From assembly GCF_003334765.1 (NCBI RefSeq), contig NZ_QOWT01000121.1: 486 nucleotides of DNA; one strand, 5' to 3'. The notes beneath the pieces are model-generated. The model saw only the letters and a list, made by a program, of their open reading frames with translations, was not told the DNA's origin and ran no database searches. The translations under genes were made by a program, and so were the position numbers. The stretch comes from Escherichia coli. Its GTDB lineage: Bacteria > Pseudomonadota > Gammaproteobacteria > Enterobacterales > Enterobacteriaceae. Shown in pieces: positions 1-486 of the stretch; within the stretch, counting starts at the first letter, position 1; each line of letters begins with the position of its first letter.

Positions 1-486
1 GAAGCTGCGCAGCGTTTCCCGGTGCAGGCGGTCGCGGGTGTACTCCACCAGCGGTGTGTCGCCGAGTTTCATGCCTGCCAGGTAACCGCTGCCGTAGGTC
101 AGCCATTCCACGGCGGGCAGGCTGTCCGGTATACAGCGGTTCGCCAGCCCCTGCGCGTTGTACGCATGTCTGGTCTCATGCTGCCAGAGCAGTGCTTCCG
201 TCTGCGGGTGATGCACCGTCTGACGCTCACCGGTCAGCCGGCCTTTCTCATCATACCTGTAATGCACCGCCACCCGGTGCCCTTCGCTGATATGGCTGAT
301 GTCTGTCAGCCAGCCACGTTCGTCATACTGCCACCGCTCTGCGGTTTCACCCTTCACGGTGCGGTGCGTGAGGCGGTCTGCTTCGTCATAGTGCCAGTGG
401 GTGACCAGACCCTCATCCTCGCTGCGGATAAGTTTGCCGGTCAGGTCGTGGTGATAACGCTGTGTGCGGCCGTCAAAGCCGGTTTC
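1..486 (-). CDS. Rhs-family YD-repeat protein, internal core fragment (partial at both ends; polymorphic toxin scaffold)
   Basis: Seen in sequence: reverse-complement frame with codons at +484-486 down to +1-3 has no stop in 162 codons, while the other two minus frames hit stops within the first 4 and 15 codons (tga). Translation: ETGFDGRTQRYHHDLTGKLIRSEDEGLVTHWHYDEADRLTHRTVKGETAERWQYDERGWLTDISHISEGHRVAVHYRYDEKGRLTGERQTVHHPQTEALLWQHETRHAYNAQGLANRCIPDSLPAVEWLTYGSGYLAGMKLGDTPLVEYTRDRLHRETLRSF. It contains repeated Y-D-x-x-G-R/W-L motifs (WQYDERGWL, YRYDEKGRL, HWHYDEADRL, RYHHDLTGKL) at the spacing expected of Rhs/YD repeats, and codon choice is enterobacterial (ctg, ggc, cgc, acc). Established knowledge: the peptide closely resembles the conserved core of E. 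coli-type Rhs proteins as I recall them. I cannot tell which paralog or species from memory, so no gene symbol is given. Confidence 0.9.
187..270 (-). repeat. YD-repeat unit (peptide-level), near-canonical YRYDEKGRLTGE
   Basis: Residues 73-100, AVHYRYDEKGRLTGERQTVHHPQTEALL. This is the best match in the window to the R-Y-x-Y-D-x-x-G-R-L consensus. The YD dipeptide is encoded at +250-255 (atcata on +), 72 nt from the neighbouring YD. Boundaries are approximate. Confidence 0.7.
271..336 (-). repeat. YD-repeat unit (peptide-level), WQYDERGWL
   Basis: Residues 51-72, RWQYDERGWLTDISHISEGHRV. The YD dipeptide is encoded at +322-327 (gtcata on +), 63 nt from the YD of the neighbouring unit. Boundaries are approximate. 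Confidence 0.65.
337..408 (-). repeat. YD-repeat unit (peptide-level), HWHYDEADRL
   Basis: Residues 27-50, LVTHWHYDEADRLTHRTVKGETAE. The YD dipeptide is encoded at +385-390 (gtcata on + = tatgac on -). Boundaries are approximate. Confidence 0.6.
409..477 (-). repeat. YD-repeat unit (peptide-level), variant RYHHD...LTGKL
   Basis: Residues 4-26 of the minus-strand translation, FDGRTQRYHHDLTGKLIRSEDEG. Fits the Rhs repeat consensus G-x(3)-R-Y-x-Y-D-x(2)-G-R-L with the second Tyr replaced by His. Boundaries are approximate. Confidence 0.6.

Follow-up and report, generated by a model that had tools for sequence, protein, structure and literature searches.

The window, by which we mean the whole 486-bp stretch of DNA analysed here, is almost certainly the antisense strand of an internal, G+C-rich piece of the core of an rhsA/rhsB-type Rhs polymorphic-toxin gene from Escherichia coli. 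This degree of confidence applies to our best explanation as a whole, i.e., to core identity, multi-copy status, recombination, conversion and assembly effects taken jointly. The feature itself is textbook and already known, an ordinary piece of the conserved Rhs core, and it is very likely present in more than one copy in the genome from which it came.

Identity of the window

The G+C content of the window is 58-66%. Frame 0 of the minus strand runs through the full 486 bases (162 codons) without a stop, and its translation reads ETGFDGRTQRYHHDLTGKLIRSEDEGLVTHWHYDEADRLTHRTVKGETAERWQYDERGWLTD...LHRETLRSF. This peptide matched the NCBIfam RHS_core model (NF041261) at model positions 675-836 of 1261, with an E-value of 2.1e-101. 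On its own it scored 340.6 bits, the curated cut-off of 2000 being beyond the reach of a 162-aa fragment, and the full proteins that contain exact copies of the window do pass that cut-off (RhsA, 2647.1 bits; RhsB, 2643.8 bits). Two units of the Pfam RHS_repeat (PF05593) were found in the peptide (E=5.3e-5 and 4.4e-4), and TIGR01643 (YD_repeat_2x) scored 19.9 bits against a cut-off of 15.8 over residues 13-50. Tandem YD repeats, with a consensus around YDxxGRL, can be read straight from the sequence as YDEADRLT, YDERGWLT and YDEKGRLT, and the YD dipeptides fall at residues 699, 720 and 744 of RhsA. The initial annotation had taken the window to be an Rhs core fragment, a premise that is borne out by the open minus frame, the RHS_core match and the RHS_repeat units.

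At the DNA level, a repeat search returned three diverged 24-nt direct repeats whose coding-strand readings, in order of window position, are YDEKGRLT, YDERGWLT and YDEADRLT. These direct repeats encode the YD motifs, so they mirror, in the DNA, the YD repeats of the protein. Inverted repeats or hairpins within the window amounted to weak arms of 70-75% complementarity, none of them notable. The features are listed below; window base 486 corresponds to gene nt 1999 and window base 1 to gene nt 2484.

1..486, minus strand: internal Rhs core coding fragment, codons 667-828 (gene nt 1999-2484) of K-12 rhsA and rhsB
349..447, minus strand: YD/RHS repeat unit, peptide residues 14-46 (PF05593, E=5.3e-5; TIGR01643)
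223..327, minus strand: YD/RHS repeat unit, peptide residues 54-88 (PF05593, E=4.4e-4)
233..391, minus strand: three diverged 24-nt direct repeats at 233-256, 305-328 and 368-391, spaced by 72 and 63 nt

We also considered whether the plus strand encodes a protein or a functional RNA, given that its frame 0 is likewise free of stops over 162 codons and that it has one weak Rfam match, to sR32. The probability of such a product is next to nil. The family match on the minus strand, at E=2e-101, stands against a plus-strand gene, as does the finding that the 211-codon antisense open stretch ends exactly at sense TTA, CTA or TCA codons. In the window, the sense strand encodes leucine by CTG, CTC and CTT only and serine by AGC; it contains no TTA, CTA or TCA, and the plus strand is open for this reason. 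The antisense gene was rejected on the K-12 rhsA locus (extracted coordinates 4184-8317), the open plus frame being a by-product of codon usage. A functional RNA was rejected as a chance match: sR32, the sole Rfam match, belongs to an archaeal snoRNA family, and its 16.3 bits (E=0.05) fall far short of the family's gathering score of 40.

In the layout of K-12 RhsA and RhsB, DUF6531 occupies residues 46-123, the RHS repeats extend over residues ~318-981, and the RHS domain lies at residues 1143-1179. Residues 667-828, which the window encodes, are identical in the two proteins. The PxxxxDPxGL motif that marks the boundary between core and tip is found at residue 1238 (PVTNTDPLGL in RhsA, PISDIDPLGL in RhsB, and PISNIDPLGL in RhsC), and the TIGR03696 Rhs-associated core domain, at residues 1170-1247 of K-12 RhsA, RhsB and RhsC, is outside the window. 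Beyond the boundary motif the tips differ, with Ntox34 in RhsA and DUF4329 in RhsB; in rhsA, G+C is 61.6% in the core versus 40.2% in the tip.

In solved Rhs proteins, a cocoon-like shell encloses the variable C-terminal toxin. Among solved Rhs chains, the best match to the window peptide was Tse5 (8cp6, residues 577-731, E=9.6e-21), followed by Tse15, 8qja, 7q97 and 7pq5. The alignments place the window peptide in the YD-repeat shell of type VI secretion system (T6SS) Rhs effectors with known structures: Pseudomonas aeruginosa Tse5 (8cp6), Tse15 (8uxt/8uy4), P. protegens RhsA (7q97) and Photorhabdus Tre23 (7pq5). These effectors share with K-12 RhsA and RhsB an architecture of shell, RHS domain, DPxGL boundary and C-terminal toxin, but they are distant homologues from other genera, and K-12 RhsA and RhsB carry a DUF6531 N-terminal region. 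We infer from these alignments that the 162 residues probably form YD-repeat beta-strands of a toxin-enclosing cocoon shell. By analogy with the family, the K-12 rhsA and rhsB loci may likewise encode toxins; to our knowledge, no delivery route has been demonstrated for K-12 RhsA or RhsB.

Copies of the core within and between genomes

We compared the window with the rhs genes of E. coli K-12 (MG1655, NC_000913.3), namely rhsA (b3593), rhsB (b3482), rhsC (b0700), rhsD (b0497) and the rhsE pseudogene. It is identical to rhsA (486/486, gene nt 1999-2484) and identical to rhsB at the same offset (486/486), whereas rhsC matches at 93.6% (31 mismatches, no gaps), rhsD at 79.8% over 481 bp, and rhsE at 82.3% over 299 bp. 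The cores of K-12 rhsA and rhsB align over 3,713 bp without gaps and with 30 mismatches (99.2% identity), and the mismatch-free stretch that contains the window is 1,214 bp long (gene nt 1894-3107). With respect to rhsA and rhsB, which belong to the RhsA-B-C-F subfamily (Clade I of Jackson et al. 2009), the window has the same sequence, the same frame and the same YD repeats; the two genes differ from each other only outside it, at the 30 core sites and in their Ntox34 and DUF4329 tips. K-12 rhsC is of the same core family and register, and its 31 mismatches cause 12 amino-acid changes; 22 of them are concentrated in one patch:

194..270, minus strand: 77-bp patch (coding-strand 217-293) with 22 of the 31 differences between the rhsA/rhsB type and K-12 rhsC

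The cores of rhsD and rhsE (RhsD-E subfamily) are homologous to the window, but at 79.8% and 82.3% they go uncounted by megablast and are too diverged to confuse read mapping.

The identity of rhsA and rhsB across the window extends beyond K-12. In ECCHD184 (a chicken isolate) and FORC 064 (a cucumber isolate), a copy with 100% identity occupies both the rhsA position (at yibF) and the rhsB position (at nikR); the two copies are on the same strand and 141.6 and 141.8 kb apart, respectively. Together with K-12 and two further isolates described below, Ryan-0026 and Res13, this gives five genomes in which both loci were read; in all five, rhsA equals rhsB across the window, and the two copies are ~142 kb apart in direct orientation. 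The 3.7-kb core occupies several loci per chromosome and so behaves as a dispersed repeat, and in K-12-like genomes the direct repeats formed by the rhsA and rhsB cores carry different toxin tips. Because the window is inside a letter-identical tract, it cannot by itself be placed at rhsA rather than rhsB. The earlier statement that a core fragment of this size cannot be assigned to a specific paralog therefore stands for this pair but is too broad for the core type, which is assignable: it is rhsA/rhsB and clearly not K-12 rhsC, rhsD or rhsE.

Two side observations concern the same loci. First, core-end fragments and orphan tips lie downstream of K-12 rhsA (yibJ, yibS, yibW and yibV; extracted locus 8338-11681) and of K-12 rhsB (yrhC; extracted locus 8400-9133). 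In this yibJ, yibS, yibW, yibV and yrhC region, the last ~450 bp of the core is repeated at 94-97%; these are extra copies of the core end and not copies of the window. Second, the automatic names given to near-identical sequence vary by record, from rhsA, rhsB and rhsC to "RHS element core protein" and "DUF4329 domain-containing protein" (e.g., NZ_CP121157.1), so RefSeq names of rhs paralogues are an unreliable guide to the chromosomal locus.

To count copies more widely, we searched 5,426 complete E. coli genomes with megablast. The window matched 3,882 of them and had 12,735 places overall, or 1-7 per matching genome (median, 3); the remaining 28% had zero match at the megablast sensitivity used. 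Nearly all places were chromosomal (12,732 of 12,735), and three were on plasmids. Of 60 matching records sampled at even intervals, 57 had at least two places: we counted one place in 3 records, two in 7, three in 32, four in 12, five in 2, and six in 4. The initial annotation had proposed several near-identical copies per genome, which agrees with this median, with the 57 of 60 sampled records and with the two exact copies in MG1655. It had placed such copies in many Enterobacteriaceae; this applies to rhs genes generally but less well to the window, whose rhsA/rhsB-type core clade is found mainly in E. coli and Shigella (PMC2935791) and is missed in more than a quarter of the complete E. 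coli genomes searched. An exact scan with a degenerate 41-mer over one genome per species returned a mis-binned rhsD-like scaffold as its sole locus, a result to be read in light of a pattern that was too strict and of GTDB folding Shigella into E. coli.

Could the window nonetheless derive from a BL21-like genome with a single-copy core, in which locus assignment and assembly would be unproblematic? Genomes of this kind exist: the minimum per matching genome is one, and 3 of the 60 sampled records have one place. These three match at just 98.6% (BL21 (TaKaRa)), 96.7% (JX21CE8) and 95.4% (WL297, where the match is partial), however, while among the matches listed every 100%-match record has two to three places, and the three 100%-match genomes with both loci read have two exact copies each. 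We regard a single-copy origin as very improbable. Put in the terms of the copy count by sequence search of closed genomes that had been suggested for this window, a unique hit occurs in none of the listed 100%-match genomes and only in a more distant minority, such as BL21.

An origin on a plasmid or phage instead of the chromosome deserves hardly any credence. Apart from the three plasmid places among the complete genomes, 17 "plasmid" and 3 "phage" records match the window. The best of the "plasmid" matches are either records of chromosome or megabase size or short linear pieces that are non-mobilizable, one of which is kdpA-kdpF-ybfA-rhs chromosomal DNA. One "phage" record is an UNVERIFIED 2.8-kb SPAdes node with a coverage of 2.9, and the other two are unannotated and 1.9-3.3 kb long. 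We rejected this origin, as the matches are mislabelled chromosomes, small linear fragments and unverified low-coverage contigs, and as the chromosomal places outnumber the plasmid ones by 12,732 to 3.

Recombination, assembly and read mapping

Recombination among rhs elements is well known. The elements owe their name to unequal, recA-dependent crossing-over of rhsA with rhsB, which duplicates glyS (PMC2935791), and a 139-kb rhsB-rhsA amplification recurs in laboratory evolution, which its authors ascribe to crossover between 3.7-kb homologous regions (PMC4340650). In Citrobacter rodentium, a translocation arose via recombination between two nearly identical rhs elements (PMC3072379). These three reports uphold the earlier view of the core as a substrate for homologous recombination and duplication. 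According to this literature, RecA-dependent unequal crossover between cores is the source of the well-known tandem duplication of ~140 kb. Inversion, which the same view had included, is not expected in the genomes examined because the copies share one orientation. In K-12, each of the five rhs genes is encoded on the plus strand, in the isolates the exact copies form direct repeats, and no inverted core copy was found among these five genes or the exact copies in ECCHD184 and FORC 064.

The rhs cores resemble rRNA operons, IS elements and tufA/tufB in that all of these are kilobase-scale, near-identical copies that break contigs and serve as substrates for recA-dependent recombination (PMC3045373, PMC3072379). 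Unlike them, the Rhs core is protein-coding, is not self-mobile, and differs from locus to locus in the toxin tip and immunity gene attached to it.

In 454 assemblies of K-12 strains, the 62 common contig breaks include all five K-12 elements (rhsA, rhsB, rhsC, rhsD and rhsE), and one false polymorphism in that work was traced to an rhs assembly error (PMC3045373). Short-read assemblers break contigs at rhs cores, according to both this literature and the orphan contigs that we encountered. The initial annotation had warned that short-read assemblies often collapse or mis-join such regions. Its warning about unreliable assembly is supported by the contig breaks, the false polymorphism and the orphan contigs, but what the public records show is fragmentation and mis-filing and not collapse or mis-joining.

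Several public records with rhs-core sequence are filed in unexpected places. NZ_CP069926.1 (1-5191), a linear "Klebsiella oxytoca plasmid" of 5,191 bp, is E. coli-type chromosomal kdpA-kdpF-ybfA-rhs that ends at core nt 2771; its rhs gene occupies the position of K-12 rhsC but bears the annotation rhsB, and it is 99.35% identical to K-12 rhsB versus 97.2% to rhsC. The 2,340-bp "Klebsiella pneumoniae plasmid" NZ_CP069827.1 is wholly core. OR844789.1 is the UNVERIFIED "Escherichia phage" node of 2.8 kb mentioned above, and JALHET010000378.1 is a 3.5-kb scaffold of a "Lentisphaerae" MAG that is 95.6% identical to rhsD and ends at core nt 2822. The plasmid database also includes NZ_OL790696.1, a 4.8-Mb E. 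coli record in which the window has 8 places and which is evidently a misfiled chromosome. When rhs-core fragments are deposited with an incorrect organism or replicon type, calls of taxonomy or of mobile elements can be led astray.

The value of these results is practical, as a caution for read mapping, variant calling and locus assignment: the window is best handled as repetitive sequence with a copy number of two or more. To tell rhsA from rhsB in K-12-like genomes, one must go 106 nt past window base 486 (gene nt 1893) for the closest discriminating base and 624 nt past window base 1 (gene nt 3108) for the following one; the locus-specific tips begin ~1.2 kb away. Variant calls within the window can be cross-mapping artefacts, and shifts in read depth may signal the common ~140-kb rhsB-rhsA duplication.

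Probable exchange between the rhsA and rhsB cores

To ask how the two cores are related within and between strains, we compared in full the rhsA- and rhsB-locus cores of K-12 and of two diverged isolates, Ryan-0026 (from a tracheal wash, US) and Res13 (from a pig, Canada); the records for the isolates are NZ_CP041392.1 and NZ_CP062815.1. The flanks are kept in all three genomes, as yibF-rhs-yibA at the rhsA locus and nikR-rhs-yhhH at the rhsB locus. Within a genome, rhsA and rhsB have 0, 0 and 0 mismatches across the window and 20, 1 and 13 over core nt 1-3640. At the same locus between strains, there are 7-10 mismatches in the window and 14-46 over core nt 1-3640. Moreover, each strain's rhsA/rhsB pair carries its own private variants, at 7 and 9 window sites relative to K-12. 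The differences come in patches: a private block occupies nt 3108-3495 of K-12 rhsA, and in Ryan-0026 one small cluster is of the rhsC state in both copies:

78..85, minus strand: cluster of four sites (gene nt 2400, 2402, 2403 and 2407) at which rhsA and rhsB of Ryan-0026 are both in the K-12 rhsC state

This cluster looks like a short conversion tract common to both paralogues. Within the 77-bp patch at 194-270, a four-paralogue alignment revealed several sites at which rhsC agrees with rhsD and rhsE instead of with the rhsA/rhsB type; by this agreement, the core is a mosaic.

Gene conversion between cores would make rhsA and rhsB resemble each other within a genome more than either locus resembles its counterpart in another strain. 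It is the simplest reading of the within-genome likeness, a signature of concerted evolution, in the three genomes compared in full, and the remaining evidence agrees with it. On balance, we favour the view that continuing gene conversion keeps the rhsA and rhsB cores identical in each genome and that short patches are also imported from rhsC-type cores. For comparison, the word "concerted" is absent from PMC2935791, where gene conversion appears only in the reference list.

Alternatively, a recent duplication in a single lineage, not followed by any exchange, might alone explain why rhsA and rhsB are identical across the window. Two observations speak for a recent event: one rhs position arose uniquely in the K12/HS/ATCC8739 lineage (PMC2935791), and K-12 rhsA and rhsB differ at a single site over core nt 82-3107. 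We nevertheless consider a duplication of this kind unlikely. Both loci are at the same chromosomal positions in K-12, Ryan-0026 and Res13, so the duplication is older than the split between these strains; each pair has gathered private variants and is still identical within its genome across the window; and the patchy differences, in the K-12 rhsA block and in the rhsC-like block shared by both Ryan-0026 copies, also argue against it.

If gene conversion does continue between the cores, the shell would evolve in concert while the toxin tips diversify. The inability to assign the window to rhsA or rhsB would then be actively maintained, and would not be the relic of a recent duplication.
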